A DNA stretch of 64,000 nucleotides, from NCBI RefSeq assembly GCF_028368995.1, contig NZ_JAQNDL010000004.1, positions 256,001 through 320,000 on the forward strand. Reading direction: 5' to 3'. Shown here piece after piece: positions 1,483 to 58,229 of the stretch. Numbering within the stretch: the first letter of the stretch is position 1; each line of letters opens with the position of its first letter. Made by a program: the position numbers and the translations under genes. The notes beneath the pieces were generated by a model that saw nothing but the letters and a program-made list of their open reading frames with translations, was not told where the DNA came from and did not search any database. The stretch comes from Nannocystis bainbridge (lineage in GTDB: Bacteria > Myxococcota_A > Polyangia > Nannocystales > Nannocystaceae).

Positions 1483-4400
1483 ATGGTCGCGCGAGTGTCG
1501 AATCAAGGCGACTGGAGCTGGTCCGAAGAGGCCCTCTATGCGTGCCCGTGCGGCTCGCTGGTGGTGGCCCGAAGGTGGCGCTGGCTCGATCGTCAGGCAC
1601 GGCCCGAGCTGGTGGCGACGCTGCGGGCCAGCGGCCCCCTCGTGGGCGCGTGTTCGCGCTGCCGCCGCCCGGCGACCGGCGGCGGGGCGTGGCTCGAGGT
1701 CGACGCGGATCGCGGGGCCGCGACGCTGGTGCTCAGCGCCGATCGCCGCGGAGATCTGATCGCCGCGCTGCAGGCCCACCTGGTCGCGCTGCAGGCCCGG
1801 CCCGAGCAGGCGGCGCCGTGGCTGCTGCAGCCGGAGGTCGCGTTCGTGCCGGTGCCGCCGCCGTGGGCCGAGGAGGCCGGCGAGGCGGCGCCCGAGCTGT
1901 CGCCGTGGCCGGGCCCGGCGCTCGGCTCGCGGGCCCAGGACTCGGGCGTGCGGGTCAGCGAGCCGGCCCGCCTCGGCGACGAGCCGGCTGGCGCGGGGGC
2001 CAGGGCGGAAGAGACAGGTGCGAAGGGGCATGTCCCCGGGGCCAGGGCCGAAGAGCCAGGTTCGAAGGGACATGTCCCGGTGGCCAGGAGCGCAGGCTCC
2101 GGCGAGGCGCCGCGGGGCGCGGGCTCGGGGCCGAGCGAGGCGGCGCGGGGCGACGCAGTGCAGGCGCGGCGGCGCGAGGGCTCGGGCGCGGTGACGGCCG
2201 CGGGCCGCCGGCGCGAGGGCTCCGACCCGGCCGCGGCGGCCCAGGCGCGGCGGCGCGAGGGCTCCGACCCGGCCGCGGCGGCGCAGGCGCGGCGGCGCGA
2301 GGCTTCGGGGCCGAGCGAGGCGGCCCAGGCGCGGCTGCGCGAGGGCTCCGGGCCGAGCGAGGCCGAGGCCCGGGCGGTCCGGGCCAGCCGCGGCAACAGT
2401 GAGTCGGCGCTGCAGGACACGTTCCCGGGCCGTCGGCGCGGGCGCTCGGCCGAGGACGTCGGGCTCGAGGAGCAGGGCAGCCTGGTGTCGGCGGCGCGGC
2501 GCTCGTTCGAGGCCAGCGGCCAGGGCAAGCCGGGCGAGCCGGGCGGGCGGCGGCCGGGGGCGGTGCTCGAAGGGACAGGTACGAACGGACAGGACGCTTC
2601 GGCCATGTCCTCCGGGGCAGGTCGGCGCGACGAGCCGGGCGGCGGGCGGCGAGCCGACGCGGCCGCGGCGGGCCCCGGGGAGGCCGGTGGCGCCGGTCGG
2701 CGCGCGGGCGCGGAGGCGCGGCCCGAGGCGGCCGGCGCGAGCGGGCAGGACGCCGCGGGGCAGGCCGCGGGTCGGCGGCCGGCGGCGGTGCTCGAGCCCG
2801 GCGACGCGGTCCGGCGGCCGGGGGCGGTGCTGGAAGGTACAGGTTCGAACGGACAGGACGCTTCGGCCATGTCCGCAGGGACAGGTCGGCCGGGCGACGC
2901 GGTCCGGCGGCCGGCCGCGGTGATCGAGCCGGGCGACGCGGTCCGGCGGCCCGGGGCGGTGCTCGAGCCGGGCGACGCGGGGTCGCGCCGGGGCTTGCCC
3001 GAAGGGACAGGTTCGAACGGACAGGATGCTTCGGCCATGTCCTCCGGGGCAGGTCGGCGGCCGGGCGCGGTGCTGGAGCCCGGCGACGCGGCGCGGCGGC
3101 CGGGGCTCGAGGGCGCGAGCGGGCCGGACGCAGCGGCCTCCGGCCGGCGGCCCACGGTGGCGCTGGAGCCCGGCGACGGGGTCCGGCGGCCGGGGGCGGT
3201 GCTGGAGCCCGGCGAGGCGAACCGGCGGCCCGGGCTGAGCGAAGGGACAGGTGCAAACGGACAGGATGCTTCGGGCATGTCCTCAGGGCCAGGTCACCGC
3301 GCCGACGAGGGCGCGCGGCGGCCGGGGGCGGTGCTCGAGGGCCCGGGCGAGGGCGGCGCGCGGGCGATCGAGGATGCGACGACGCGGCGACCCGGGGCGG
3401 TGCTCGAAGGGACAGGTGCGAACCGACAGGAACCCGCGGCCATGTCCGCAGGGACAGGTCGGCGCGACGATCCGGGCGGCCGACGGGGGCCCGAGCCGGG
3501 CGCCGAGGGCGACCCGGAGCGGTCGGCCCTGCGCGCGGCGGTGGCCCGGGCGTTGACGCCGGCGGCGCCGCCGGAGAGCGGGCCGCCTCGGCCAGCGGCG
3601 GTGCTGCCAGGGCCGGCGGAGGCGAGCGCGGCCGAGAGCAGCGGGACGTGGTCGCGGCGCCAGGTCGAGGCGGCCGACGCGGCGGCCCGGCGCAACCTCG
3701 AGGGCAGCGACAGCCGGCAGGTCAGCGAGGCGGCGATCACCGGGACCTGGCCCAAGCGCCAGATCCTCGAGGGCCCGGCCGACAGCGGGCCGGGCTGGCG
3801 CCGCGAGGAGGAGCCGCGCACGGGGCGACCGAGCCGCGCCCCGGCGCCGCCGCCGGTGCGCCTCGGGGCCGATGTCCAGCGGACCGCGCTGGGCAGCCTC
3901 GGTCGCGACGGCGGGGTTGTGCAGCTGACGGCCAACGTCAACGAGGCGACGGCGCGGGTGTGGGCGACGGCGCCGGTCAAGGTCCGGCCGATCCACCTGC
4001 GCGGGCTCGGCTATCCGCTGGTTGGCGTGCGCGCGGTGGCCGAGGCCGGCGGCGAGCCGCTGGTGATCGACGCGGTGGTCGATGTCGGCGAGCCGATGAC
4101 GCTCGACCTCTTCAAGCAGCTGACCCGCGAGTTCAAGATCCGCCTGGCGCTGCCCGGCACGCATCGCGAGCTGGTGGCGCCGGAGCTGCAACGCAACGCG
4201 GCGTCGTGCCTCGAGAGCGCGCAAGCGCAGCTCGGCACCGGCGAGTTCCCGCCCGACGCGTACCGCACGGCCCGCGAGCTGCTGACCGGGCAGAGCGCGG
4301 CGCAGCGGCTCGAGCCGGCCCGCACGCCGATCGGCGAGTCGCTGGCCGAGACCAGCCGCGAGTCGGCGGCGGCGGCGTGGCTGGCGCTCGAGCGGCTCGA

Positions 4401-5505
4401 CCAGGGATCGCGCAAGGACAACCTGGGGCGTCTGCTCGAGGTCGACGGGCTGGGGGTCGAGACGTACGAGAAGATCCGCTCGACCGTGCTCGGCGCGGCG
4501 ATCGAATTCGGGCTGCCGGCCCCGGCCCGCTTCTGGCGCCGCTGGCTCGGCTCCGACCAGGCGCGCGACGTGGGGACCTTCGTGCAGAAGCTCATCGCAG
4601 CGCGCACGGCGTCGATCGCCCGCGGGGAGGACCTCGACGCCGACCAGGCCGAGGCCGCCTGGCGCGGGATCCTCGACCTGTGCCAGCACAAGAACCTGAC
4701 CCCGCCGCCGGAGCTGTCCAAGGCGCTCGGGCTCGGCAAGGTGACGACCGGCCGGCGCGCCAGCCAGCCGCAGATCAAGGCGGCGGCCGAGGTCCGGGAG
4801 GCGGCGCCGGTGCAGGAGGCGCGGTCGCAGGCCCGTCTGCGCGAGCTGACGGCCCGCCTGCGCGGCGCCCCGGCGGACAGCGATGTCCGGGCGGTGGTCG
4901 GCAGCTTGCCGGAATTGGCCGAAGCCGACGTCGCCAGTCTGATGCCGGTGCTGGCGGAGCTCGGTCCGCGCATCGGGCCGGAGCTGCTGGCCTGCCTGCG
5001 GGCGCCGCAGAGGCACGTGCGCCAGGCGGCGGCGATCCTGCTGGGCCACCTCGGCGAGCGCAAGGCCGAGGGTCCGCTGGTGACGATGCTCGGCGACGAA
5101 CCCAGCGGCGGGTGGGTCGATGCGGCCCGCGCGCTCGGCAACCTGGGGCCGCGGGTGGTCGGGCCGCTGTGCAACCTGCTCCGGAGCACCCCGAGCGGCC
5201 GCAAAGAGGCGGTCGGGGCGCGGGTCGCCCGCGCGCTGGCGGAGCTGATCAAGGCCGAGGGCGCGGGGCCGGGCGGGTCGGGCCGGGTCGCGGTCGAGAA
5301 TTTGCTGGAGGTCGCCGACCCGTCGGTATCCTCCGCGGCCCGCCGTGCGCTTGCTACACTGGGCGCCGTGCGGGACGAGGTCGACGGCGAAGAGGCCGAG
5401 GCGTCACGCCGGTTCTCTCGGCTGGCGTCCGACGCGATCGCGCCGGAGCTCGACGCCGCCGAGGACGACGAGGTCGACGAAGTCGAAGTGGAAGTCGGGG
5501 ACTGA
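1483..5505 (+). CDS. large protein: N-terminal Cys-motif (CpXC-like zinc ribbon) domain, low-complexity repeat region, C-terminal HEAT-like repeats
   Basis: CPCG...CSRC near N-terminus; VRQAAAILLGHLG, DAARALGNLG, AARRALATLG HEAT-like helices; acidic tail; start taken at ATG 1483 to avoid overlap with the divergent gene; TGATG coupling to next gene. Confidence 0.75.
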   Translation: MVARVSNQGDWSWSEEALYACPCGSLVVARRWRWLDRQARPELVATLRASGPLVGACSRCRRPATGGGAWLEVDADRGAATLVLSADRRGDLIAALQAHLVALQARPEQAAPWLLQPEVAFVPVPPPWAEEAGEAAPELSPWPGPALGSRAQDSGVRVSEPARLGDEPAGAGARAEETGAKGHVPGARAEEPGSKGHVPVARSAGSGEAPRGAGSGPSEAARGDAVQARRREGSGAVTAAGRRREGSDPAAAAQARRREGSDPAAAAQARRREASGPSEAAQARLREGSGPSEAEARAVRASRGNSESALQDTFPGRRRGRSAEDVGLEEQGSLVSAARRSFEASGQGKPGEPGGRRPGAVLEGTGTNGQDASAMSSGAGRRDEPGGGRRADAAAAGPGEAGGAGRRAGAEARPEAAGASGQDAAGQAAGRRPAAVLEPGDAVRRPGAVLEGTGSNGQDASAMSAGTGRPGDAVRRPAAVIEPGDAVRRPGAVLEPGDAGSRRGLPEGTGSNGQDASAMSSGAGRRPGAVLEPGDAARRPGLEGASGPDAAASGRRPTVALEPGDGVRRPGAVLEPGEANRRPGLSEGTGANGQDASGMSSGPGHRADEGARRPGAVLEGPGEGGARAIEDATTRRPGAVLEGTGANRQEPAAMSAGTGRRDDPGGRRGPEPGAEGDPERSALRAAVARALTPAAPPESGPPRPAAVLPGPAEASAAESSGTWSRRQVEAADAAARRNLEGSDSRQVSEAAITGTWPKRQILEGPADSGPGWRREEEPRTGRPSRAPAPPPVRLGADVQRTALGSLGRDGGVVQLTANVNEATARVWATAPVKVRPIHLRGLGYPLVGVRAVAEAGGEPLVIDAVVDVGEPMTLDLFKQLTREFKIRLALPGTHRELVAPELQRNAASCLESAQAQLGTGEFPPDAYRTARELLTGQSAAQRLEPARTPIGESLAETSRESAAAAWLALERLDQGSRKDNLGRLLEVDGLGVETYEKIRSTVLGAAIEFGLPAPARFWRRWLGSDQARDVGTFVQKLIAARTASIARGEDLDADQAEAAWRGILDLCQHKNLTPPPELSKALGLGKVTTGRRASQPQIKAAAEVREAAPVQEARSQARLRELTARLRGAPADSDVRAVVGSLPELAEADVASLMPVLAELGPRIGPELLACLRAPQRHVRQAAAILLGHLGERKAEGPLVTMLGDEPSGGWVDAARALGNLGPRVVGPLCNLLRSTPSGRKEAVGARVARALAELIKAEGAGPGGSGRVAVENLLEVADPSVSSAARRALATLGAVRDEVDGEEAEASRRFSRLASDAIAPELDAAEDDEVDEVEVEVGD
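2001..2088. repeat. 14-bp-phased GGACA(T/G)G array, 7 units, inside CDS
   Basis: CAGG/CATG cores at 2001, 2015, 2029, 2043, 2057, 2071, 2085. Confidence 0.85.
2158..2362 (+). repeat. in-frame ~39-nt tandem repeat (13-aa unit AQARRREGSDPAA)
   Basis: About five degenerate copies of gcaggcgcggcggcgcgagggctccgacccggccgcggc. Confidence 0.8.
2569..3462 (+). repeat. five copies of a ~56-nt block (EGTGxNGQDASAMSxGxG), each made of four 14-bp-phased units, interspersed with RRPGAVLEPGD repeats
   Basis: Blocks with first cores at 2576, 2840, 3008, 3248, 3413; cores at +14, +28, +42 in each. Confidence 0.85.
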
Positions 5506-6239
5506 TGCGCTACGGGATCTTCAGTGATGTCCACGCCAACCTGGATGCCCTCGAGGCGGTCCTCCGCTCGTTCGAACGCGAGAAGATCGACGCGCTGGTG
5601 TGCCTCGGCGACACCGTCGGGTACGGCTCGCAGCCGAACGACTGCTGCGACATCGTCAAGCGCGTCACTCGCTACACGATCCTCGGCAACCACGACGCGG
5701 CGGTCGCCGGCCGCATGGACTACAGCTACTACTACGACGCGGCCCGCGAGGCGCTCGACTGGCACTCGCGCCAGCTGACCGCCGAGAACATGGGCTGGCT
5801 GCGCAAGCTCAACTACTTCGAGCGCGACGGGGCGACCCACTTCTGCCACGGCTCGCCGGTCGACCTCGAGGAGTTCGAGTACATCTTCAGCGTCGAGCAG
5901 GCGGCCACGTGCATCCCGATCTGGGACAGCCTCGGCCAGATCACTTTCATCGGCCACTCGCACCTGTGCAAGGCGTTCGCCATCGGCCGCGAGCGCGTGT
6001 ACGAGGTGGTGACCAAGGAATTCGAGATCCACCCCGAGTTCCGCTACATCGTCTCGGTCGGCTCGGTCGGCCAGCCCCGCGACCACGACCCGCGCGCGAG
6101 CTACACGATCTACGACTCGGGCCGCGGCAAGTTCGAGTTCAAGCGCGTCGAGTACGATGTCGGCGCGGCGGCGCGGAAGATCTTCAACGACGCCCGCCTG
6201 TCCGACAGCTTCGGCGCGCGGCTGTTCGCCGGGGTGTGA
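5505..6239 (+). CDS. metallophosphoesterase (calcineurin-like phosphoesterase family)
   Basis: SDVHAN, LGDTVGYG, GNHD, HGSP, GHSH, GSVGQPRD motifs; ATG overlaps upstream TGA. Confidence 0.93.
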   Translation: MRYGIFSDVHANLDALEAVLRSFEREKIDALVCLGDTVGYGSQPNDCCDIVKRVTRYTILGNHDAAVAGRMDYSYYYDAAREALDWHSRQLTAENMGWLRKLNYFERDGATHFCHGSPVDLEEFEYIFSVEQAATCIPIWDSLGQITFIGHSHLCKAFAIGRERVYEVVTKEFEIHPEFRYIVSVGSVGQPRDHDPRASYTIYDSGRGKFEFKRVEYDVGAAARKIFNDARLSDSFGARLFAGV

Positions 6240-6305
6240 GGCTGTCCCCGCGGACATGTCCGCGGGGTCATGTGTGAGCGCTCGCGCCGCGCGGGCCGCC
6301 CGCGC

Positions 6306-6728
6306 TCAGTCGTCGTCGTTCGTGCCGCAGGGCTTCAGCGCGGCCTCGACGTCCGCCGGCAGCCTCGGGCACGCGTCGGGCCGGAGGAGCGGCTGGCAGC
6401 CCTCCCACGAGTCGGCTTCGTCGCAGACGAGCATGTCCTCGAGGCAGTCGTTGTACTCGCGGTGCTGGTCGACGAAGCACTCGAGCGACTTCTTGGAGGC
6501 CTTCTTGTCGACGGCGAGGGCGTCCTCGAGGCACTCGCGGTCGAACGGGCTGAGGAAGGAGCCGAACTGCGCCTCGCAGGCGGCGCGGTCGGGGAACACG
6601 TTGGTGCAGTCGCAGATGAGGTCGATCGACTTCTCCGACTCGGCGTCCATCTGGTTCAGCAGGGAGTTGACCGAACAGCCGGGGGCGAGCGCGACGAACA
6701 GGGCGAGCGTGGAGGCGCGGCGCTTCAT
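6306..6728 (-). CDS. Cys-rich lipoprotein
   Basis: MKRRASTLALFVALAPGC lipobox; about 10 Cys in mature part. Confidence 0.8.
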   Translation of the reverse strand: MKRRASTLALFVALAPGCSVNSLLNQMDAESEKSIDLICDCTNVFPDRAACEAQFGSFLSPFDRECLEDALAVDKKASKKSLECFVDQHREYNDCLEDMLVCDEADSWEGCQPLLRPDACPRLPADVEAALKPCGTNDDD

Positions 6729-6814
6729 GCCGGCATGGTAGGCGACGGGACCGGGCGATGGCGCGCCCTCGCGGGCCGACGCGGCGGGCCCGGGCTTGTT
6801 AGGCTGGACGGCGC

Positions 6815-7273
6815 ATGGGCAGCTACCGCCTGACCTGGCGGCCACTCGCGGGCGGCCACCTCGCCATCGGTCACAAGCCAGGACGCGACCTGCGACAGGC
6901 GCTGGCGGAGACCGGCTGCACGCACGTGCTGAGCCTGCTGGCCGACCACGAGGCGGGCGTGCCGGCGAGCGGGGTGCAACTGCGGCTGCCGCTGGCCTCG
7001 GCCGAGCCGCCAGGGCCGGAGCGCAGCGCGGAGGTGCGGGCCTGCTTCGCCGAATTGCAGGGGCTGCTGGCCGGCGGGGCGAAGATCTACGTCCACTGCT
7101 CGGCCGGGCTGCACCGCACGGGCATGGTGGCGCACGGGTTGCTGCGCTACCTGGGCCTGGGGCCCGCGGAGGCGCTGGCGCGCCTGGGGGAGCTGCGCGA
7201 GGCGACGGCGCAGGCGGCCACGGAGCCACGGCTGCGCTGGGGCGAGCAGTTCGCGGCGGACGAGCCGGGCTGA
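6815..7273 (+). CDS. protein-tyrosine/dual-specificity phosphatase
   Basis: P-loop HCSAGLHRTG (CX5R). Confidence 0.88.
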   Translation: MGSYRLTWRPLAGGHLAIGHKPGRDLRQALAETGCTHVLSLLADHEAGVPASGVQLRLPLASAEPPGPERSAEVRACFAELQGLLAGGAKIYVHCSAGLHRTGMVAHGLLRYLGLGPAEALARLGELREATAQAATEPRLRWGEQFAADEPG

Positions 7274-7451
7274 GGCGGGGTCGAGCGCCTCGCGGACGTG
7301 GGCGCGAGGGCTCGCGGCAGGCTGAGCACGCCGCCATGTCGGCGATGTCGAGGCGCCTGCCAGATAACGGACGCAGGCGAGGCGTGAAGTCCGACCGTCG
7401 GCGGACCGGCGTCGAGCGGCTTCGCGGGCTGCGATATCGTGGTGACCGATC

Positions 7452-7530
7452 GGGCATGTCTTCGGCGACATGCTCGTGAGGACATGCGCATACGGACATG
7501 TCAAAGAGGGCATGTCCCTGCGGACATGCT
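7452..7530. repeat. intergenic 14-bp-phased GGACATG(TCC) array, 6 units
   Basis: CATG at 7455, 7469, 7483, 7497, 7511, 7525 between convergent genes. Confidence 0.9.
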
Positions 7531-7535
7531 CGCGC

Positions 7536-8402: not shown

Positions 8403-8815
8403 GGCGAGGGCGCCTCCACGCGGGTGAAGAGGAACATGCCGGCGAGCATGGCGGCGACGAACAGGGCGAGGTCGCCGCTGCCGCCGGCGAGGCCGACGAG
8501 GGCCGGGCCGGGGCACAGGCCGACGAGGCCCCAGCCGAGGCCGAACAGGGCGGCGCCGGCGAGCAGCGAGCGGTCGACGCGGCTGCGCTGCGGCAGGTGA
8601 AAGCGCGGGGCCAGGAGCGGTCGCCCGCGGCGGAGCACGAGCGGGGCGGCGAGCATGTAGAGGCCGGCGGCGCCGCCGAGCACGAGCATCAAAGCGGGGT
8701 CCCAGGCGCCGGCGAGGTCGAGGAAGGCGAGCACGTTTTCGGGCCGCGTCATGCCGGCGAGGCCGAGGCCGAGCGCGAACACGAGGCCCGAGAGCAGCGC
8801 GACGAGGACGGTCAT
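8399..8815 (-). CDS. YeeE/YedE family sulfur transport membrane protein
   Basis: [13 protein letters not shown]...[18 protein letters not shown]. Confidence 0.9.
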
Positions 8816-9035: not shown

Positions 9036-9466
9036 CACGAGGCACCTCCGAGGACGTGGCGGGTCAGAAAGACGGTGACGAAGGCGACCGTCATGAAGGT
9101 GAGGACGGCGGCGAGCGAGCGCGGCGAGCGGCGGCCGAGGCCGCACACGCCGTGGCCGGAGGTGCAGCCGCCGCCGAGGCGGGCGCCGAAGCCGACCAGC
9201 AGGCCGGCGAGGGCGATGGTGAGGCCGGAGCCGGGCAGGTCTTTGGGCAATGTCTCGGAGGACAGGACCCGAAGGACAGCTCCGCCGGCGAGCAGGCCGA
9301 GCACGAAGGCGAGGCGCCAGGCGAGATCGCCCGCGCGAGGGCGGAGCGCGCCGCCGACGATGCCGCTGACGCCGGCGATCCGGCCGGCGCCGGCGAGCAG
9401 GAGGACCGCGGCGGCGCCGATCATGAGGCCGCCGAGGAGGGCGAGGAGCAGGGGAGAGCTGGCCAT
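9035..9466 (-). CDS. YeeE/YedE family sulfur transport membrane protein
   Basis: GGLMIG, GRIAGVSGI, GGGCTSGHGVCG motifs. Confidence 0.92.
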   Translation of the reverse strand: MASSPLLLALLGGLMIGAAAVLLLAGAGRIAGVSGIVGGALRPRAGDLAWRLAFVLGLLAGGAVLRVLSSETLPKDLPGSGLTIALAGLLVGFGARLGGGCTSGHGVCGLGRRSPRSLAAVLTFMTVAFVTVFLTRHVLGGAS

Positions 9467-10833: not shown

Positions 10834-11098
10834 CGGTCGGTGCTCGTGGACCGGCGCCCCCGGGCGGCCGCGCCGTCGCAGCGGCCGGACCGATCGGACA
10901 TGCCGGAGAGGACATGTCGCGGAGGACAGGTTGCGGCAGCGGGCTCGGCCATGGCCGGCTGTCCGCTGCAGGCCGTGCGAGCGTGCTATCGGCGCGAGTC
11001 GAGGCGGAGCGGACGAGGGGGCGCGCCGACGCGAGGAAATGCGAGGCATCGCGGCGGCCCGGGCGGCGGGTCGGGCCGACCCGTGCCAGCCTTGGCGC

Positions 11099-12962: not shown

Positions 12963-13065
12963 CGGGAGTCGCCCGGGCGGCCGTCAGGGCGTGCCGCCCT
13001 GGCGGGCGACTGTCATGATATGTCCTCGAGGACATGCAGCCGGGGTCGGTGCGCGCCCGGGTGAG

Positions 13066-13090
13066 GATGTCCTTCGGGACATCTTTTTTT
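13066..13090 (+). terminator. intrinsic terminator with cUUCGg tetraloop
   Basis: GATGTCC-TTCG-GGACATC followed by T7, about 100 nt after stop of 12600-12962. Confidence 0.75.
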
Positions 13091-13120
13091 CATCGGGGCG
13101 CTGCGACGGCGCCGGGTTGA

Positions 13121-13143
13121 GATGTCCTTCGGGACATTTTTTT
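13121..13143 (+). terminator. second tandem intrinsic terminator
   Basis: ATGTCC-TTCG-GGACAT followed by T run. Confidence 0.7.
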
Positions 13144-13263
13144 GCGAGCGGGGCGCTGCGACGGCGCGGGCTGGATGTCCTTCGGGATGTCTTTTGCGAT
13201 CGGACGCTGCGACGGCGCAGGCTGGATGACCCGGAGGACATGTCTTGACGCACCCGGGCGGCG

Positions 13264-17016: not shown

Positions 17017-17547
17017 CGTCGTCCTCCTCGCGCCGGGGAGCCGGAGCGGCCGTGAAGGTGTTGGCAATGCGCGTCCAGACGCCGCGGGGAGCGGCGGGGG
17101 CTGCGCTGATCTTCGAGCTGACTATGATGATACACGTCCGTTTGAATATTGGTAGACACAAATTGCCGTGGCGCGGCGAAACAGCCCTGCCACCGCCACC
17201 CCGGTGTGGGTGCGCCGCCCGCGACCGTGCATGGCGATGATTCGTCATTGGCCACACCGGCGCACCCACGCTGTCACAGGCTTCGACCGAGGCCTCTTCC
17301 GTGGGACGCGAGGACGATGGACCCCAATCACGCCGGTGCGAGGCGCCCGCGCCGCGCGGACCCCCGGGCGCCGCCGGAGGTGCTGACGCGTGGATTGGTA
17401 GAATGTCCCGAAGGACAGGCGACGCGGGCCGCGATTTCGCCCGCGCAATTGAACCTCGACCGGTGACCCCGGTTCAACAGCGGCGCCGCGTGCTGCGATT
17501 CGCCGCGAAGAACGATGTGCGTCCGCGGCGAATCGTCGATATCGTAT

Positions 17548-23586: not shown

Positions 23587-24008
23587 CGTGATCTCCTGCT
23601 CGAATCATCGAGCGGGGTCGAGGCGCGCGGGCGTATCAGACCGCGAGCGAGCAGCCGTTCGCCCCATTCGGCAGCGACGCGCGACCCGACCCCATTCGGC
23701 AATCGTGAGGAGGTCGGTCCTGTCGGCAAGCACGCTCGGCCACGAAAGGCGCGCGGCTGTCGTCCGGCGTACGCGTCTGCCGGCTCGCTCCTCACCGGCG
23801 GAGCGAAGGCGTCGATCTGTCGTCGAGGTCGTGTGGGATGTCCTCGGGGACAGGTCGAGAGCGGGGCGGAGAAGATGCGGAGCCGCCGCTGCGCGAGCAG
23901 GCGAGCGAGCGTCGTGGTCGGCGACGGTTCGCGTCGCGAGCGGGAGCGCGGTCGTGGAGCGCGCCTCCCCGGGTCCGCAACGGGCGTCTGGACCGGCGCA
24001 GGTAAGTG

Positions 24009-24674: not shown

Positions 24675-27494
24675 ATGCGCGAGCCGGAGCCCATCACCGA
24701 GCACGACAGCGGCGCGAGCGATCGTTTCATGCGCCTGTTCGCCGAGCACCGCGAGCAGGCCGCGACCGCCGATGCGTCGGCCGGGGGTGCCTTCGATTTC
24801 CCGGCCGAGGACGTCGCGGCCTTCAGCGCGCTGATCGGCGACCGCTACCGGATCGAGCGCGAGCTCGGACGCGGCGGCATGGGGGTCGTCTTCCTCGGCC
24901 ACGACCATCGGCTCGAGCGCTGCGTCGCGCTCAAGGTGTTGCCGCGCGCGCACGGCGAGAGCGCGGCGCATCAGCGCCGATTCCTGCGCGAGGCGCGGAC
25001 GGTGGCCAAGCTGTCGCACCCCCACATCGTGCCGATCCTGCACGCCGAGGAGGCCGGGCCGTTCGCCTACTTCACGATGGCCTACGTCGAGGGCGAGACG
25101 CTCGCCGAGCGGATCCGCCGCGCAGGTCGCATGCCGGTCGTCGAGGTGGTGAAGGTGCTGCGCGAGGTCGCGTGGGCGCTGGCGTACTCGCACGCGTGCG
25201 GGGTGGTGCACCGCGACGTCAAGCCCGAGAACATCCTGCTCGAGCGGGCCACGGGCCGCGCGCTGGTGTCGGACTTCGGCATCGCCCAGCAGGTCGGCGA
25301 CGCGGGCATCACCGGCGCCGATCACCTGGTCGGCACGGTCCTGTTCATGAGCCCGGAGCAGGCGCAGCGCGTCGAACTCGACGGGCGCAGCGATCTCTAT
25401 TCGCTGGGGGTGGTCGGCTTCTGGCTGCTGTCCGGCAAGTATCCGTTCGCCGCCGACACGGCGCTGGCGTCGTTGCTGCAGCGCGTAAATCGGCTCGCGC
25501 CGCCGCTGCGCTCGGTCGCCCCCGATGTCGCGCCGGCGATCGCGGCGGTGATCGATCGCTGCCTCGCGCGCGCGCCGGACGACCGCGTGCGCAGCGGCGA
25601 GGAGCTGGCGGAGGCGCTCGAGCGGGCGCTGCACGGCGAGCCGAAGAGCGGCCGCGACGAGCGTGCGCTGGGCGAGGCCGAGATCGGCGCGGCGCTGCTG
25701 CAGGCCGCCGAGCTGCGGCGGATGCTCCGCGAGCACGCGGAAGCGCCGGCGCCGATCGACCGGGTCTGCCGCGCGCTGGGCGAGCAGCTCGGCGTGCCCG
25801 GCGGCGTGGCGATCGACCTGTTCGAGCGGCTCGCGCTCATGTGCCCCGGCGACGCCGACGACCTGCGCGTGCTCGCTGCGGCGCACGGGCAGCTGTTGCC
25901 AGATCCGCAGCATTCCACGGCCGCCGACCTCGGCGCCATGTTCGCGACCCGGGACGACGCCTCGCTGTTCGAGCGGCTGCTCGGCCTGAGCCGCGGCTTG
26001 CCGCTGCACCACCCGCTGGTCCAGCGCCTGCATCTGCTGGCCGCGCGCGTGCGGGCGCATCGTGACGGGGCCGACGACGGCGAGGTCGCGGCGCGCTTGT
26101 TGCTCGAGATCCGCGACCTCGCCGCGCGCCTGCTCGAGCTGCGGCGCGAGGGCTTTGGCGAGCCGGTCGTCGACCACGAGAGCGCGACGCTCGGGCTCTA
26201 CCAGGAGGTGTTGGCGGAGGTCCGCCGCAACGACGGCGTGCGGGCATCGAAGCGGCTCCTGGACCTCGCGCGGGTGCGTGGGGCCTCGCGCTCGCAGCTC
26301 GCGGCGGTCGGCGCCCTCGCCGAGCAGGCGAGCCAGCACGCCGGCGTTCATGCCGCCCGCGGGAGCGACGACGCGTGGTTCGCCTTGCTGGCCGCGCTGC
26401 TCGAGTCGGCCGGCAGCCTGGTGTCGGCGGGTCCGGACGAGCTGGCGATCACCGCGCGCACCGACGAGCTGCGACGCGGCGACCTGCAGAGGGCGCGGCG
26501 ACTGTTCCTCGCGCGCCGCGGCGAAGAGCCTCCGCGAGCGAGCGACGCGATCTTCGTCGCCGAGGCGGTGGGCAAGTCGTACGGCCGCCGCAACCGCGCC
26601 GCCGATCAGGTGCTGGGCGACGTCTCGCTGGCGCTGCATCCCGGGACCATCACCGGGGTGGTCGGGCCCAACGGCTGCGGCAAGACCACGCTGCTGCGGA
26701 TCGTCGCCGGCCAGCTCGCGCCCGATGTCGGCCGCGTCGCCTATCCGCGGCTGGATCCGCCGGGCGTCGCGCGCGGGACGACCGACTGGCAGCGGGTGCT
26801 GCCGCAGATCGGCTACGTCGCGCAGCGCCCGGAGCGGTGGTTCGGCGGCCTCGGCGACAACCTGCACCGCTGGGCCGCGCTGCACGGGGTGGTCGGCGAG
26901 GACAACGCGATCGAGGTCGAGTTCTACCTCAACCGCCTCGACCTGCTGCGTTACCGCGACGCCCAGTGGCACGAGCTGTCGGGCGGCTATCGCATGCGCT
27001 TCGAGCTCGCGCGCGTCATGGTCGCGCGCCCGCGCCTGCTGGTGCTGGACGAGCCGCTGGCGCCGCTCGACATCAATTCGCAGGAGACCTTCCTGCGGGA
27101 CCTCCGCGACCTCGCCGACATGGACGGGCAACAGCTGCCGATCCTGCTCAGCTCGCAGCACATCGTCGAGGTCGAGTCGATCGCGGACACGCTGTTGTGC
27201 CTGCACCAGTCGGGTCGGCCGCGCTTCTGCGGCCCGGCCCGCGCAGTGGCGGGTCGCGGCGACGAGCGGGTGTACGAGCTCGGCGGCGCGATCTCGCAGG
27301 ACCTGCTCGACGCGGTGCGCCAGCAGTTCGCGCTCACGGCCCATCGCGCGGGCGAGCGCTGGATCGTGCGAGTGCCGGCAGATGTCCCGGAGGACAGGTT
27401 GCTGCGGGCGCTGCTGGCCCGCCACGGCAGCGTCGATTACTTCCGCAACATCACGCAATCTTGCGTGCGTTTTTTCAGGGGAGATGCGTCATGA
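24675..27494 (+). CDS. Ser/Thr kinase - helical repeat - ABC ATPase fusion
   Basis: GRGGMG, VALK, HRDVKPEN, DFG, MSPEQ; Walker A GPNGCGKT, signature LSGGY, Walker B LLVLDE; GGAGA RBS. Confidence 0.9.
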   Translation: MREPEPITEHDSGASDRFMRLFAEHREQAATADASAGGAFDFPAEDVAAFSALIGDRYRIERELGRGGMGVVFLGHDHRLERCVALKVLPRAHGESAAHQRRFLREARTVAKLSHPHIVPILHAEEAGPFAYFTMAYVEGETLAERIRRAGRMPVVEVVKVLREVAWALAYSHACGVVHRDVKPENILLERATGRALVSDFGIAQQVGDAGITGADHLVGTVLFMSPEQAQRVELDGRSDLYSLGVVGFWLLSGKYPFAADTALASLLQRVNRLAPPLRSVAPDVAPAIAAVIDRCLARAPDDRVRSGEELAEALERALHGEPKSGRDERALGEAEIGAALLQAAELRRMLREHAEAPAPIDRVCRALGEQLGVPGGVAIDLFERLALMCPGDADDLRVLAAAHGQLLPDPQHSTAADLGAMFATRDDASLFERLLGLSRGLPLHHPLVQRLHLLAARVRAHRDGADDGEVAARLLLEIRDLAARLLELRREGFGEPVVDHESATLGLYQEVLAEVRRNDGVRASKRLLDLARVRGASRSQLAAVGALAEQASQHAGVHAARGSDDAWFALLAALLESAGSLVSAGPDELAITARTDELRRGDLQRARRLFLARRGEEPPRASDAIFVAEAVGKSYGRRNRAADQVLGDVSLALHPGTITGVVGPNGCGKTTLLRIVAGQLAPDVGRVAYPRLDPPGVARGTTDWQRVLPQIGYVAQRPERWFGGLGDNLHRWAALHGVVGEDNAIEVEFYLNRLDLLRYRDAQWHELSGGYRMRFELARVMVARPRLLVLDEPLAPLDINSQETFLRDLRDLADMDGQQLPILLSSQHIVEVESIADTLLCLHQSGRPRFCGPARAVAGRGDERVYELGGAISQDLLDAVRQQFALTAHRAGERWIVRVPADVPEDRLLRALLARHGSVDYFRNITQSCVRFFRGDAS

Positions 27495-30932: not shown

Positions 30933-31056
30933 GCTGTCCTTCGGGACATGTTGCGGGCGGCCGAGGGGCGAGAGAGCGCGCGGGCCGGGGCTGCCTCTCG
31001 GGACAGGTCATGGGGCGGGGGCGAGCCGGGGACGGCGGCTGTCTCTCGGGGCAGGT
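30933..31056. repeat. three 14-bp-phased doublets (GCTGTCCTTCGGGACATG-like)
   Basis: Core pairs 30933/30947, 30990/31004, 31038/31052. Confidence 0.8.
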
Positions 31057-31070
31057 TGGGGCCGCGCGGG

Positions 31071-49324: not shown

Positions 49325-52099
49325 ATGACCCGTCTCATCGTCTCCAAGCTCCTCCCTCGCATCGCCTTGCTCTCCACTTCGCTCGCCATCGGCTGCGACG
49401 AGCCCGAGGCCGGCGAGACCGCCGATCTCGCCGCCGACCTGCAGGAGTTCGTCGTCGGCGCGCCGGTGGAGGTCTCGCTCGCCCCGGCCGACGCCTCGCC
49501 GATCACCCTCATCACATGTCCCGAAGGACAGGCATGCGGCGCCGAGCTGCCGGCGCCGGCCGCCACCTTCGTCACCCCGCAGATCGACGCGCGCCCCGAC
49601 CTGCGTGCGCGGGTCGGTTACGCCGCGCGCAAGCGCGTGCTCGCGGTCGCCGACCTCGGCGAGCGGTTCAAGAACGCTATCGACATCAAGTTCGTCGAGG
49701 GCAGCGGGGTTCAGGCCCGCGGCGGCGCGCTGGTCCTCGATTCCGCGGCGCCCGCCGCGAGTCGGGCCGGCCTCGCCGAGGTCCAGCGGCTGCTCGACGG
49801 CCAGGCCCGCGCCGCCGCGGTCGCCATGCACACCGTCGATCCCGAGCTGCTGCGCGCGTGGAAACGCGACGGCGAGCGGGCCACCGGCGAGGAGCTGCCC
49901 GACCTCACCTTGTGGCAGCAACTGTTCGTCGAGGCCGCCGACGATCGCGCCTTCGTGGCGCTGATCAACGACCTCAATCGGCTGCCGATCGTCGAGCTGG
50001 CGAGCGCCACGCCGTTGCCGGCGGCGCCGCCCGGGCTGGCCGGGGAGGCCGCCGAGGCGTTCGCCGCCGCGGCGCGCGAGCACGATCGGCTGCCGTGGCC
50101 CGACGCCGAGCGCTTCACCGCGAAGATCGGCAGCACCACCGCCGCCGTCGGGCCCGGGCTCGTCGATCCGACCCCGCCGACAGCGCTGCTCGCGGACGAC
50201 GACGACGCGACGCGCAGCGGCCACGCCGGCGCGCCCGCGACGCTCGCCGCTCCCGGAGCCGATCCGAGCGCGGTCGTCGGCGACTACCGACCGCTGCAGA
50301 CGTACACCGTCTCGGCGCCGTTCGGGATGGACTTCGACTATCTGCGCAGCTCGTTCTGGAACGCCTGGGGCAACGGCTGGGGCTACACCGACGTCGAGTT
50401 CAACTGGAACCGCAACCACGCCGATCTCGGGGCGATCGCCGGCAATGAGGTGCTCGCCAACTTGGTGCCGACGCGGGTGTGGAGCGGCTGGCAGAACGTC
50501 GTCGATCACGGCACCGGCGTGGTCGGCATCCTCAGCAGCACCGACGACGCCGTCGGCACCACCGGCCTGGTCCCGAGCGCGACCGTGCGGCTGTCGACCG
50601 AGGAGAACGTGTGGGGCTGGAACCGCGTCGCCTCGATCACCGCCGCCGCGGCGCAGTTCTGGCCGGGCGCGGTCATCCTGCTCGAGATGCAGACGAGCGC
50701 CGGCTTCGACTGCAACTTCAACGGCGCGGCCGACGGCAACGACCTCGTGCCCGCCGAGTGGGACCCCGCGGTCAAGGACGCCATCCGCACCGCCGTCGCC
50801 AACGGGCGGATCGTCGTCGAGGCCGCCGGTAACGGCGATGGTTGCGACATCGGCCACTTCGGCTTCAGCGGCGCCTTCTCGGCCACCGATCCGGCCCAGG
50901 ACTCGGGCGCGATCATCGTCGGCGCCGGCGTGCCGAGCACGCGCGCGCCCGAGGGCTTCAGCACCACCGGCGCGCGCGTCGACGTCCAGGGTCAGGGCTC
51001 GGGCATCGTCACCACCGGCTACGGCTCGCTGCACAACAGCGACGGCTACGACCGCGAGTACGCCAACGGCTTCAACGGCACCTCGGGCGCCTCGCCGATG
51101 ATCACCGGCGTCGCGGTCGCGCTGTCGGGCGTGCTCAACTTCCAGTTCGGCTCGACCTTCGCGCCGCGCGAGCTGCGGGCGCTGCTGCGCCGCGTGGGCA
51201 CGCCCCAGGGCCCCGGCGCGCACATCGGCCCGCGGCCCGACCTGCGACTTCAATCGCAGTACCTCACCGCGCGCCACGTCCAGATCCGCAACTCCGACTT
51301 CGACGGCGACGGCCGCGACGATCTGGTGTCGTGGCGGCCCGAGAACGGCACCTGGTACATCCTGTTCTCTGCCACCGGGCAGACCGCGTCGTACCAGTGG
51401 GGCCTGCTGGGCGACATCCCGGTGCCCGCCAACATGGCCGGCGACGCGCGGGCCGATCTGGTGGTGTTCCGCCCGGCCGACGGCACCTGGCACGTGCGCC
51501 CGTGGGACGCGCCGGCCTACTGGCTGTCGTACGGCCTGAACGGCGACATCCCGGTGCCGATGGATCACGACGGCGACGGCCTCGCCTCGCCGGCGGTGTT
51601 CCGCCAGGCCGTGATGAACGGGACCTCGCTGTCGCGCTGGTACATCCGCACCAGCGCGACCACCTCGACCACGTTCGACTGGGGCGAGCAGGGCGACATC
51701 CCGCTGACCGGCGATTTCGACCTCGACGGCCGCGACGATTTCGCCATCTATCGCGGCAACACCGGGACGTGGTGGATCTATCCGTGGACCGGGCAATGGT
51801 TCACGAAGAGCTGGGGCCTCCGCGGCGACATCCCGCTCGTCGACCGCGTCGCCAGCCGCGACCAGATCGCCGTGTGGCGCCCGAGCAACGGCACGTTCTA
51901 TCGCATGAACCTGCAGACGAGCGCCAATTCGTCGGCGCAGTGGGGCGCCGCCGGCGACCTGCCGCGCCTGGCCGACACCGACGGCAACGGCACCAGCGAA
52001 CGCATCTATTATCACCCGGAGACGGGCGTTTGGTACAACCTCGATCGCTGGACGGGCATCAGCTGGGGCCTGCCCAACGACGTGCCGCTGGCGCGCTGA
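49325..52099 (+). CDS. S8 subtilisin-like protease lipoprotein with C-terminal FG-GAP-like repeats
   Basis: LAIGC lipobox; triad YTDVE, HGTGVVG, GTSGASP; EAAGNG; DFDGDGRDD..WRP..WG..GDIP repeats. Confidence 0.9.
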   Translation: MTRLIVSKLLPRIALLSTSLAIGCDEPEAGETADLAADLQEFVVGAPVEVSLAPADASPITLITCPEGQACGAELPAPAATFVTPQIDARPDLRARVGYAARKRVLAVADLGERFKNAIDIKFVEGSGVQARGGALVLDSAAPAASRAGLAEVQRLLDGQARAAAVAMHTVDPELLRAWKRDGERATGEELPDLTLWQQLFVEAADDRAFVALINDLNRLPIVELASATPLPAAPPGLAGEAAEAFAAAAREHDRLPWPDAERFTAKIGSTTAAVGPGLVDPTPPTALLADDDDATRSGHAGAPATLAAPGADPSAVVGDYRPLQTYTVSAPFGMDFDYLRSSFWNAWGNGWGYTDVEFNWNRNHADLGAIAGNEVLANLVPTRVWSGWQNVVDHGTGVVGILSSTDDAVGTTGLVPSATVRLSTEENVWGWNRVASITAAAAQFWPGAVILLEMQTSAGFDCNFNGAADGNDLVPAEWDPAVKDAIRTAVANGRIVVEAAGNGDGCDIGHFGFSGAFSATDPAQDSGAIIVGAGVPSTRAPEGFSTTGARVDVQGQGSGIVTTGYGSLHNSDGYDREYANGFNGTSGASPMITGVAVALSGVLNFQFGSTFAPRELRALLRRVGTPQGPGAHIGPRPDLRLQSQYLTARHVQIRNSDFDGDGRDDLVSWRPENGTWYILFSATGQTASYQWGLLGDIPVPANMAGDARADLVVFRPADGTWHVRPWDAPAYWLSYGLNGDIPVPMDHDGDGLASPAVFRQAVMNGTSLSRWYIRTSATTSTTFDWGEQGDIPLTGDFDLDGRDDFAIYRGNTGTWWIYPWTGQWFTKSWGLRGDIPLVDRVASRDQIAVWRPSNGTFYRMNLQTSANSSAQWGAAGDLPRLADTDGNGTSERIYYHPETGVWYNLDRWTGISWGLPNDVPLAR

Positions 52100-52742
52100 C
52101 GCGACCGCGCCGCTCACACGCATTCGGTTGATTGACGATCCATGACGCATGGGGCCTTGCAGGCGTCATTCACGATGAGCTCCAGCCCGCGCGCGGCAAG
52201 ACGGCCGCGCGCGGGCCCTTGCCATTTGCATTGTCAGCAACAGACATGAGATGCAAGTCGAAGCGGCCGATTTCGTCGTTCGCCGCGGACCTTGCGGGCT
52301 GATGTCTGTTGCAATGTCAGCCACGCCCAGTGGAAGTGCGAGCGCGCATCGCCGCGTCGCGGGGCTCACGGAGATCGCCCGGCGACGTCGGCCGCTGCGC
52401 CCCGCTCACGCTCGAGGAACGTGCCAGCGCTTCGAGGTGCGTGCCCCTCCCTCGAGGCAGGCTCCTGATCTCGGTGCACGAGGAGGGCACCGGGATGGCT
52501 TCGATGACATGGCGTGAAGGACATGTCCAAAAGAACATCACCTGAGCGCCTCGCGGACGCGACAGCGCCGTTCGGCGCGAGCGGCTGCGCGCGGTCGCTC
52601 GCGCCGCCGCCGTCCCTTCGCGGCCGGGGCTTGCGGAACAGCTCGCTGACGGATCTCCGACAGGGGCGTCCCCGCTGACCTCGGTGCGGGCGGGCGTGTT
52701 AGGTTCGCCGCGCATGCGAAGGGCGCAGCGAGGGGGCGGCTG

Positions 52743-53654: not shown

Positions 53655-54156
53655 GCGCCAGCGAGCGCGAGCGTGACCCGCGGCACACTCTGCGAACGGC
53701 GGATGGCCGATTGTCGCCAGTTCCGCCGGTGCCAATCAGTGTGGCGACGCACCGGCCGATGCCTCGAGCGCGCACGGCGCCGTCCGCGGCCGTCGTGATT
53801 CGCGGACGTCCGACAGACCTGCTGGACCATGGTCACGTGTCCACCGCGAATCATGCGAGCGTCCGCGCCGGCGGGCCGTGCCGCGAATGTCGGCGCCGCG
53901 GGGCTGCTGCGCGCGCGCTGGCCCTGCGGGGCGTTCCCGAGCAGACGTCGACCGTCTGCGGCGCGTGAGGACAGGAAAAATCGCAAGTCTCTTCGGACAT
54001 GTCCGATCTACCAGGTGCAATGTCACTGGTGACAACGACGCGGACGGTGCACCCGCGAGCGTGAGGTTCGGCGGCGCGCAATTGTCGACGCCCCGCTCCG
54101 CGATCCGCGACGATTGACAGCGAGCGAGCGCCGACCCTACGGTCCGACTCGTAGCC

Positions 54157-57910: not shown

Positions 57911-58229
57911 GCGCTCGCGCAGCGAGGGGCGAGCAGGCCAGGCGAGCGTGGTCGCGGTGAGGTTGCGGCAGATCGGTGGCCGTGCGCCGACGACACCCGC
58001 TCTGCCGGATCTGCCACCGATGGGGCGGCCCGCGAGCCGGCCATAGGCGACGCGCCAGCCCGTGCATGGCCGACCTCGGCGCAGACACGCTGTGAGATGA
58101 TGAATGACCGAGACGACATGTCGATAGGGACATGTCCTCCGGGCTATGTCATCAGTGCATTCTCGTGCGTGAGGCGACGACGATCGCCTCGCATTGCGTG
58201 CGACCTGGCGGTCAGGCCCGGCGACGAAG

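Follow-up and report, generated by a model that had tools for sequence, protein, structure and literature searches.

The 64,000-nucleotide stretch of Nannocystis bainbridge DNA analysed here (the window) carries a family of short inverted repeats that lie in one long reading frame (ORF 1285-5505, the repeat gene), in spacers between genes and at a few sites within other genes (Table 1). In its basic form the module is an inverted repeat of 14 bp, (A)TGTCC-N4-GGACA(K). Where two modules abut they have a CAKG junction in common: the first module's right arm runs into the left arm of the second to make the decamer GGACAKGTCC, and the array is thereby locked to a 14-bp period in exact phase. Many of the doublets that the original prediction took for two head-to-tail units are single inverted repeats, TGTCC-N4-GGACA. 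Among the core coordinates it gave (52 that can be expanded, hand count), 33 indeed read CA[TG]G; the other 19 read NATG or similar and are the left arm of an inverted module. A module with at most one mismatch, or a CAKG pair at 14 bp, is present at 18 of its 20 loci and absent from two weak ones, 8868/8882 and 14286/14300.

Table 1 Module-bearing features of the window and the genes named with them
Feature	Position	Strand	Remarks
7-unit array, 42-nt (3-unit) super-period	1998..2095	+	in ORF 1285-5505; period 42, 2.2 copies; encodes GARAEExGxKGHVP repeats; orthologues hold 9, 6, 6, 7 and 4 units
4-unit block 1	2573..2628	+	in ORF 1285-5505; encodes EGTGxNGQDASAMSSGAGRR
4-unit block 2	2837..2892	+	in ORF 1285-5505; exact module at 2870
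4-unit block 3	3005..3060	+	in ORF 1285-5505
4-unit block 4	3245..3300	+	in ORF 1285-5505
4-unit block 5	3410..3465	+	in ORF 1285-5505; exact module at 3443
Modules between convergent genes	6243..6279		4 nt past the 5508-6239 gene's stop codon; folded RNA -31.6 kcal/mol, z -3.8
Perfect 22-bp palindrome, CATG-centred	6246-6267		part of the 6243..6279 modules
6-unit array, convergent spacer	7452..7535		ends one base before the MBL-fold stop codon; folds into a single long hairpin, z -4.2 (+), -2.8 (-)
MBL-fold gene stop codon	7536-7538	minus
Sulphur-transport gene	9035-9466	minus
One inverted module and one in-phase direct GGACAG unit	9249..9290		inside the sulphur-transport gene
3-unit array	10896..10937	+	spacer after a strictosidine-synthase-like gene
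Exact module, TCGA spacer	13019..13046
55-bp tandem repeat, three copies	13063..13252	+	copies 1 and 2: modules 13068 and 13123, TTCG loop then 7-T run; copy 3 at 13173 degenerate, then 4 T; extra module at 13227; fold z -3.3
Exact module, CGAA on + / UUCG on -	17402..17422		144 nt past the stop of a minus-strand gene
Exact module, divergent spacer	23837..23857
Exact module	27381..27401		last 111 nt of a plus-strand kinase/ABC ORF; about 100 nt upstream of the next start codon
Three module-bearing copies of a ~50-nt repeat	30933..31058	+	between two minus-strand genes; one exact module at 30935, two degenerate
Exact module in an S8 peptidase ORF	49515..49535		encodes conserved CPEGQ with rare codons
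Degenerate 4-unit run with one perfect decamer	52494..52545		in a spacer
Perfect decamer GGACATGTCC and degenerate neighbours	53984..54020		about 145 nt upstream of a hydrolase gene
3-unit array between convergent genes	58114..58155		fold z -2.3

The module family is real and not a product of chance. CA[TG]G pairs at distances of 14, 28 and 42 bp number 35, 23 and 25, against 3.6, 4.1 and 3.8 in 30 dinucleotide shuffles, confirming the predicted 14-bp periodicity; for the longer G[GA][AC]CA[TG]G, 12 pairs at 14 bp compare with 0.1 in dinucleotide shuffles. Exact matches to TGTCC-N(3..8)-GGACA in the window have N=4 in 12 of 12 cases. With at most one mismatch there are 26 modules at N4 and 0-3 at each of 11 other spacers (0-11), while 100 dinucleotide shuffles gave 1.47 +/- 1.13 modules and a maximum of 5. 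Twenty-four of the 26 fall inside loci listed by the original prediction, and the remaining two (14921 and 38449) are one-mismatch modules within genes, at about chance level. Over six Nannocystis sequences the count rises to 85 at N4 and 1-6 per other spacer; all counts rest on these 165 kb, which are largely orthologous, with orthologous copies counted separately. Among intergenic 7-mers ACATGTC shows the strongest over-representation (58 where 5.2 are expected), and GACATGTC occurs 9 times in the window where base composition predicts about 0.4 by our own arithmetic. Outside the repeat gene the six sequences hold 32 GGACAGG and 11 CCTGTCC; because a GC skew of about 0.1 would lead one to expect about 28 to 15 (own arithmetic), we claim no replication-oriented bias for GGACAGG.

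Similarity between loci is confined to the repeat itself. BLAST of 13 array segments with their flanks aligned only an 11-21-nt core, and no longer mobile element or terminal repeats were seen around them. At the 18 exact GTCC-N4-GGAC sites, base frequencies next to the arms reveal nothing beyond (G)(A/C)T and A(T/G)G. The module at 27381..27401 matches positions 10914-10934 at 20 of 21 bases, and that at 49515..49535 is identical over 18 of 18 to the reverse complement of the copy at 30935. ARAGORN found 0 tRNA or tmRNA genes.

Modules are concentrated between genes. Outside the repeat gene 41 of 53 are intergenic, intergenic sequence being 19% of the DNA (hand count), and modules are densest a short way from stop codons, at distances between a few bases and a few tens. 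Their density per kb is 2.56 in convergent spacers, 1.65 and 0.96 in the two co-directional classes and 1.37 in divergent ones; 9 of 22 convergent and 4 of 23 divergent spacers are occupied, the divergent figure being inflated by gene-call errors. In ordinary genes, CAKG pairs at 14 bp give no signal (6 against 6.8 in synonymous-codon shuffles). Exact modules there number 2 where such shuffles give 0.02, and modules in all 5 against 1.3, with conservation seen only at a few coding sites. One of these, 9249..9290 (module at 9251), is kept in 5 of 5 species and has A/T at 4 of 15 third codon positions, compared with 4 of 97 in its flanks. At 49517 an in-frame insertion is ruled out, CPEGQ being present in homologues of 84% and 61% identity; at the protein level its P and E never vary (4 of 4). 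Neither coding site is an insertion, and simple selfish copying does not explain them.

Constraint on the modules acts on nucleotides, not protein, as the original prediction had argued. In five orthologues of the repeat gene from five species, GC3 is 0.62-0.69 in the arrays and 0.92-0.94 elsewhere, and without the CAKG bases it is 0.70 in the arrays and 0.93 outside. Histidine is encoded by CAT and CAC in a ratio of 10:1 in the arrays and 6:35 outside them, and a synonymous-codon shuffle of the gene leaves 0.4 modules where 8 are observed. The 42-nt triple unit of this gene is present in 3, 2 or 1 copies depending on the species; thus arrays expand and contract, which bears out the unit expansion that had been proposed. 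The arrays occupy a linker of about 500 residues found only in Nannocystis: homologues outside the genus (794-844 aa) have no counterpart of residues ~200-700 of the 1406-aa protein, and 3 of 3 Nannocystis proteins have the array peptides, whereas 0 of 6 others do. From these comparisons the arrays appear to have invaded a tolerant protein linker, which we offer in support of the explanation given below.

The comparison of orthologues that had been proposed as a check placed the family in 5 of 5 syntenic Nannocystis loci. Two spacers carry modules in each of the six species, with unit numbers and linkers that differ. The predicted combination of fixed spacing and variable linkers is supported. 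The spacer of the 7452..7535 array holds arrays in 5 of 5 Nannocystis loci, in sequences that are not alignable, and the orthologous arrays of 10896..10937 (L001-L005) directly follow the same stop codon. Ten loci from outside Nannocystis, two of them 69% GC, hold 0-1 modules each, near background.

We explain these observations by a short palindromic repeat family of the REP/BIME kind that spans the genus Nannocystis, and give this explanation a probability of roughly 0.5. The original prediction had dismissed REP; we disagree, on the grounds of copy density, extragenic 3′-end bias, imperfect palindromy without covariation and genus-wide vertical persistence. In our reading the family is also HIP1-like, read at the DNA level and able to form hairpins. 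From a spacing that stays strict across linkers, from arms that do not covary and from an orientation independent of transcription we infer that the arms are kept through DNA recognition by a putative trans-acting protein. The palindromes could fold into stable hairpins in transcripts or in extruded DNA, and such hairpins may act at 3′ ends and, where a T-run adjoins, as terminators. New units would most likely come from in-register slippage or duplication together with point substitution towards the motif, and insertion of a long mobile element is an unlikely origin. Arrays in the coding linker change in 42-nt steps of three units, with whole units gained or lost between species.

Alternatively, and possible though short of probable, the modules may form a phased operator lattice for a dimeric, sequence-specific DNA-binding protein whose dimers pack against each other every 14 bp. 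They would then be selected binding sites, as HIP1 sites are thought to be for chromosome structure, and not copying repeats; the protein could be of the nucleoid-associated or roadblock type, three units (42 bp) making about four helical turns. Such a protein would account for an N4 kept strictly across differing spacer sequences (85 against 1-6), whereas a hairpin loop would tolerate 3-8 nt, and for arms without covariation. It would likewise fit the in-phase direct GGACAKG units that have no complementary arm (9263/9277, the 10896 array, the coding blocks), an orientation independent of transcription (hand count), synonymous codon choices that create or keep motifs in conserved peptides, and exact 16-18-mers, spacer included, shared between unrelated loci. 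As a lead only, ATGTCC-N4-GGACAT fits the shape ATGT-N8-ACAT, which we take to be the PadR-family operator consensus; the sites are not promoter-centred. What such a lattice would not lead one to expect is an extrapolated density of about 1 per 2 kb, which no ordinary regulon approaches, an asymmetric spacer preference (TTCG/TCCG) at the site of a symmetric dimer, a preference for gene 3′ ends over promoters, or near absence from ordinary coding DNA, unlike HIP1. No candidate protein is known. Among the 57 ORF translations of the window we found no candidate binding protein and no transposase, reverse transcriptase, RAYT or PadR domain, consistent with the predicted lack of a trans-acting gene in the window, whose sole DNA-binding domain is an AraC-type HTH (59878-60879). 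Its only methyltransferase domain is Methyltransf_30, presumably of the tRNA-modification type.

An RNA element is unlikely. Modules would here be stable UNCG-capped stem-loops in 3′ untranslated regions, with a role in transcript ending or protection, or else would offer an RNA-binding protein multiple target sites, with conservation of the DNA as a by-product. Arrays give much more stable folds than shuffled sequence does (z from -2.3 to -4.2), modules lie near stop codons with their highest density in convergent spacers, and UNCG-type spacers number 13 of 53 by hand count where composition predicts about 2. Among six terminator-like matches in positions 1-20000, one lies on a motif, at 13063, and is canonical; a second copy with a sense-strand T7 tail, at 13121, was found by eye, and other modules have no tail. 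However, compensatory changes are absent: in 42 pairs of triplets beside neighbouring CATG cores, all taken outside the repeat gene, 60 of 126 base pairs are Watson-Crick compared with 56.1 in permutations (p = 0.22), or 81 compared with 83.1 when G-U is allowed. The sixth stem pair is not kept, ATGTCC standing opposite GGACAG at many sites; modules also lie in divergent spacers and antisense within genes; and Rfam 15 gives 0 matches in the window at gathering score. UNCG loops are in sense at 8 sites and antisense to the local gene at 5 (hand count), and most single modules fold weakly (z -0.4 to -1.1); with orientation mixed and folding weak, an RNA hairpin role is unproven.

Several known element types were also considered and rejected. 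The modules are not canonical intrinsic terminators, with one motif match in 1-20000 and most copies devoid of a T-run. A CsrA/Rsm sponge is excluded by a GGA that lies in the stem and not the loop, with unfit flanks, and a Rho rut array, in which 6 x 14 nt would approximate one hexamer footprint, by arrays that are G-rich and structured. GG-N10-GC of a Sigma-54 promoter matches only three GGACAGGTTGC sites, Shine-Dalgarno mimicry would concern only the CGGA-spacer copies, and a LacI-type 14-bp operator fails for want of a central CG rule.

Very unlikely, in our view, is an active writer, a HUH/Y1-type single-strand enzyme or another that adds a 14-nt unit beside an existing one and uses the unit's own end as target, which would yield the exact head-to-tail phase. 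That phase is exact despite differing linkers, unit number varies between species, and in the alignment of 10896..10937 a 7-nt indel creates the third, in-phase core of this array in the window relative to L002 and L003; the indel is nevertheless smaller than a whole unit, and a deletion in the other lineage is equally possible. Neighbouring units are non-identical, unlike fresh insertions, the coding sites arose without insertion, and the 57 ORF translations contain no such gene. Hardly tenable at all is a compositional artefact of a 72% GC genome, or a set of ordinary unrelated terminator hairpins: two of the 20 claimed loci do fail both criteria and ordinary genes show no 14-bp excess, yet shuffle and spacer-length controls refute it, GC-matched foreign loci hold 0-1 modules and one arm sequence recurs at every locus.

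Beyond the preferred explanation, a REP-like family kept by DNA recognition, we tentatively raise a doubtful but consequential possibility: the modules could be the cis half of a hitherto undescribed chromosome-level system, in which a putative Nannocystis protein reads TGTCC-N4-GGACA, polymerises in 14-bp register and marks or insulates gene ends. If so, three dimers would sit on every four helical turns and could form a barrier to transcription or supercoils between convergent genes, and selection for the sites would be powerful enough to outweigh codon usage and to make a 500-residue protein linker out of their arrays.

Dispersed palindromic repeats such as REP, BIME and HIP1 are common in bacteria, and their function and spread are disputed. 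The Nannocystis family offers an unusually clean geometry, with a bipartite 14-bp module, exact phasing and unit turnover between sister species. Against surroundings at 93% GC3 the nucleotide-level selection can be made out, and arrays have been turned into a protein linker. Whether such repeats are kept up by protein binding, RNA hairpins or copying, which protein binds them and whether new protein can arise from non-coding repeats thus become testable questions in culturable Nannocystis. For annotation, the arrays can hide, or pass for, gene ends and small ORFs in Nannocystis genomes.

Among known systems, a CRISPR array does not fit: its repeats of 23-50 nt with unique spacers of similar length differ from 10-nt units with 4-nt linkers at about 20 dispersed loci, as the original prediction had concluded. 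Intrinsic (Rho-independent) terminators are likewise stem-loops past a stop codon, and the copies at 13063 and 13121 with UUCG loop and T7 tail resemble them; unlike terminators, most modules have no T-run, pair over only 5-6 bases, use one arm sequence and include antisense and divergent copies. Rickettsia palindromic elements (RPE) are single insertions of 100-150 bp placed in frame inside protein-coding genes. They too add peptide to a tolerant region, the parallel being the Nannocystis-only linker, although here a 14-nt unit is multiplied in 42-nt steps. Neisseria has the dRS3/NIME repeats, very short inverted repeats whose spacer is of constant length (6-N8-6); hundreds of copies lie between genes, and they build mosaic arrays. 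Fixed-spacer inverted repeats that build arrays are common to both, while spacer and arms differ, and dRS3 flanks longer repeat units and serves phage integration, neither of which is seen here.

REP, BIME and REPIN elements are hosted by enterobacteria, Pseudomonas and Stenotrophomonas, and RAYT is a Y1 transposase whose gene is usually flanked by the repeats; no RAYT was seen among the 57 ORF translations of the window. HIP1 (GCGATCGC) of cyanobacteria is, in the accessible sections of PMC5861425, a lineage-wide hyper-abundant short palindrome under nucleotide-level selection even inside ORFs, without an RNA or peptide role and perhaps related to chromosome structure, and in these respects it resembles the Nannocystis family. 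HIP1 is, however, an 8-mer found in genes and spacers alike with 10-90 kb periodicity, while the Nannocystis module is bipartite (5-N4-5), set in 14-bp lattices and almost excluded from ordinary genes. The available part of PMC4390886 gives HIP1 cognate methyltransferases; none is known for the Nannocystis motif, though its core is CATG.

The closest likeness is to REP/BIME/REPIN elements, which, in the available parts of PMC3733652, PMC3116915 and PMC3337134 and more generally, are short imperfect palindromes in many copies, placed outside genes and mostly at gene 3′ ends, clustered, occupying the same spacers across related species, able to form stem-loops and presumed to be recognised by protein. 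Differences are that the Nannocystis unit, while palindromic and folding, has 14-18 nt and a stem of 5-6 bp where REPs have 20-40 nt; that the GTAG or CGTC tetranucleotide tag which REPs carry at one end, according to the accessible text of PMC3733652, is missing from the 18 exact GTCC-N4-GGAC sites; that arrays run in exact 14-bp register with shared junctions, whereas BIMEs alternate REPs and linker motifs; and that some copies lie in frame within a coding linker. A match to an already described myxobacterial repeat, which the original prediction had named as refuting it, did not turn up in our literature search, where no account of such an element was found for Nannocystis or any other myxobacterium, and six myxobacterial names are not mentioned in the part of PMC3733652 available. 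The family, though apparently undescribed in Nannocystis, is of the same kind as REP-type repeats.

The 14-bp phasing put forward in the original prediction is well above background: pairs of CA[TG]G separated by 14, 28 and 42 bp occur 35, 23 and 25 times, where 30 dinucleotide-preserving shuffles give about 3.6-4.1. For the seven-base core G[GA][AC]CA[TG]G, the window has 12 recurrences at 14 bp against an expectation of 0.1. Tandem Repeats Finder detects a period of 14 at 6243, 7493 and 10896, and one of 42 nt at 1996-2088. The underlying module has the form (A)TGTCC-N4-GGACA(K), an inverted repeat whose spacer measures four bases in all 12 exact TGTCC-N(3-8)-GGACA matches of the window. Allowing one mismatch, the window contains 26 modules at N4, against 0-3 at each other spacer within 0-11 and 1.47 +/- 1.13 modules (maximum 5) in 100 shuffles.

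Flanking bases were counted at the 18 exact GTCC-N4-GGAC sites outside the array-bearing repeat gene, an unbiased set. T precedes the left arm and A follows the right arm at 16 sites each, and the next position outward is A or C on the left (11 and 6 sites) and T or G on the right (11 and 7). Modules that abut create a CAKG junction and the decamer GGACAKGTCC; the window's five perfect decamers are all part of arrays or doublets. The consensus of 41 non-genic array units reads RRR-CATG-YYN followed by four variable, relatively A/T-rich bases. Similarity between loci ends at a core of 11-21 nt, and therefore no longer element was found around the modules. Of the 20 loci originally listed, 18 satisfy one of two simple criteria, the exceptions being 8868/8882 and 14286/14300. 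Among the 52 core coordinates into which that list expands, 33 are CAKG at the exact base and the rest are left-arm NATG; many of the supposed head-to-tail doublets are therefore one inverted repeat rather than two direct units.

For comparison, 15 loci were retrieved using the MBL-fold protein of 7536-8516 as query. Five (L001-L005) come from Nannocystis, namely N. punicea, N. sp. RBIL2, N. pusilla, N. exedens and N. radixulma, and the other ten, from unrelated bacteria, serve as controls. The MBL-fold protein is 87-92 % identical in the five Nannocystis loci, which are syntenic with window positions 1-11725 at a DNA identity of about 80-92 %. All counts are based on the 64 kb and five 20-kb loci, most of whose sequence is orthologous to the window's first 12 kb, with our own GC3-based gene calls. 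The window has a GC content of 70-82 %, a GC skew that is positive almost throughout, and a typical myxobacterial gene content (Ser/Thr kinases, a large hybrid histidine kinase, FG-GAP proteins, an S8 peptidase).

The module family is present at all five Nannocystis loci. None of the ten foreign loci, of which two are 20 kb long with 69 % GC, has more than one module (range 0-1). In 165 kb of Nannocystis DNA, with orthologous copies counted separately, we find 85 modules at N4 versus 1-6 for any other spacer. By hand count, 32 of the 85 lie in the repeat gene and its orthologues, and 41 of the remaining 53 are intergenic, intergenic DNA being 19 % of the total. The most over-represented intergenic 7-mer is ACATGTC (58 versus 5.2). 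Module density is 2.56 per kb between convergent genes, where 9 of 22 spacers are occupied, and 1.65 and 0.96 per kb between co-directional genes. Two miscalled sites in L004 and a long, partly coding-looking L002/L003 spacer inflate the density of 1.37 per kb in divergent spacers, of which only 4 of 23 are occupied. Arrays often begin a few bases from a stop codon, with a gap of 4 nt at 6243 and none at 7535; in the orthologues the gap is between a few and about 30 nt.

On its sense strand the repeat gene, which encodes 1406 aa from a GTG start, has one array of seven units and five blocks of four units. In the orthologues the first array has 9, 6, 6, 7 and 4 units, made up of a degenerate flank and a 42-nt triple unit in 3, 2, 2, 2 and 1 copies, and there are one to five 4-unit blocks. 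Block-to-block distances are multiples of three for all four intervals of the window and most of those in orthologues, and by our own gene calls the frame is open in five of six species, L004 being split by the crude caller. The original prediction held that the constraint acts on nucleotides rather than protein, and this gene bears it out. GC3 falls to 0.62-0.69 inside arrays from 0.92-0.94 elsewhere in each of five species, and is still 0.70 (246/350) versus 0.93 once the four selection-forced CAKG bases are removed. His codons are CAT 10 to CAC 1 within arrays and 6 to 35 outside, and eight modules are observed where synonymous-codon shuffling leaves 0.4. Non-Nannocystis homologues of 780-844 aa, from Paraliomyxa, a Nannocystaceae MAG and other records, match the first ~200 and the last ~700 residues and have no counterpart of residues ~200-700, which coincide exactly with the array region. 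Peptides encoded by the arrays (GHVP, xMSxG, NGQD) are present in three of three Nannocystis proteins and none of six others. Thus the arrays have built a genus-specific linker, probably disordered, whose codons are explained by the DNA word and not by the peptide.

The protein itself combines a Cys-rich N-terminal domain with C-terminal HEAT repeats, and homologues occur widely in Myxococcota-like records. The precomputed annotation of one distant homologue is CpXC (PF14353), but a Pfam scan of residues 1-238 gave no match.

Ordinary genes are essentially without the 14-bp signal (6 pairs versus 6.8 expected) and hold two exact modules versus 0.02 expected. The site at 49517 matches the reverse complement of 30935 at 18 of 18 bases and encodes CPEGQ through rare codons; homologues that are 84 % and 61 % identical keep this peptide, so an insertion is ruled out. 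The site at 9251, antisense-neutral within a gene for a membrane protein, is kept in all five species. Its third positions are A/T in 4 of 15 cases versus 4 of 97 in the flanks, and third-base identity is 11/15 versus 55/97, which alone is not significant. In L005 the module at this site became perfect while the amino acids changed.

In the spacers, arrays persist while their sequences turn over. All six species have arrays between the phosphatase-like and MBL genes, none alignable with another. All six likewise have arrays directly after the stop codon of the strictosidine-synthase-like gene, where a recognisable module pair is common to L002, L003 and L004 and two window units align to L002/L003 with cores better conserved than linkers. 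A 7-nt indel (GACAGGT) at window 10917-10937 relative to L002/L003, less than a whole 14-nt unit, accounts for the window's third in-phase GGACAGG core, either as a gain in the window or as a loss in the other lineage.

The element could instead act as an RNA hairpin. Arrays do fold far better than shuffles (z of -3.8 at 6232-6285, -3.3 at 13058-13100, and -4.2 and -2.8 on the two strands of 7445-7540), but single modules do not (z of -0.4 to -1.1), and in-phase direct units exist without a partner arm. Of 53 modules, 13 have a UNCG-type spacer on one strand, versus about 2 expected from base composition, yet that strand is sense at eight sites and antisense at five (hand count), and the spacer is invariably four bases of any sequence. 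Two module copies have T7 tails; against this, the arms show no compensatory covariation and the sixth stem pair is not conserved. On these sequence features we place the primary constraint on DNA, hairpin formation being a likely property but a secondary one.

Several further features were observed (see table). An intergenic stretch of ~70 nt (GCCCTGTCCTAGGTATTCC...GGTGTAGACTG...) hardly differs among the six Nannocystis sequences and is far better conserved than the adjoining genes; it could represent a promoter, a leader or a small RNA. The orthologous spacers in L001-L005 show no copy of the 36-bp repeat, which the window has between the array at 10896 and the strictosidine-synthase-like gene. 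The two spacers with ~50-55-nt units have one motif hairpin per unit, the units being unrelated outside it, and no 14-bp motif was noticed in the 71-bp repeat. In a comparison of window 6240-6305 with L001, L003 and L005, the DNA that separates the metallophosphoesterase gene from the next conserved gene is longer than in the window by ~0.9 kb in L001 and ~2.6 kb in L003, and L003 has a classical GC-stem + T8 terminator at the counterpart of the window's 22-bp motif palindrome. The kinase-ABC frame has its gene start called at 24675 and may be a fusion or two genes.

Coordinates of the repeat gene and of additional features in the window, with counterparts in the Nannocystis loci
Feature	Window	Strand	Counterparts
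Conserved intergenic stretch, ~70 nt	~730-800	minus	L001 ~2940, L002 ~3630, L003 ~623, L004 ~2548, L005 ~2737
Repeat gene (ORF)	1285-5505	plus	
Spacer after metallophosphoesterase gene	6240-6305		
Tandem repeat, 36 bp, 3.3 copies, 98 % identity	10713-10833		
Spacer, three tandem copies of ~50-55-nt unit	13065-13228		
Single stop-free frame, Ser/Thr kinase domain + ABC-transporter ATPase domain	24033-27494		
Spacer, three tandem copies of ~50-55-nt unit	30925-31060		
Tandem repeat in a spacer, 71 bp, 3.2 copies, 75 % matches	33356-33584		

We found no published description of such repeats in Nannocystis or myxobacteria in openly accessible main texts, and the survey PMC3733652 makes no mention of six myxobacterial names. 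Among known dispersed palindromes, the module family resembles REP/BIME elements in copy density, placement, imperfect palindromy, clustering and persistence, but differs in end tag and size. Like HIP1 (PMC5861425), it is a lineage-wide palindromic word kept by selection; unlike HIP1, it is avoided by ordinary ORFs. We therefore file it as a family of the dispersed-palindrome kind that stands outside both REP/BIME and HIP1.
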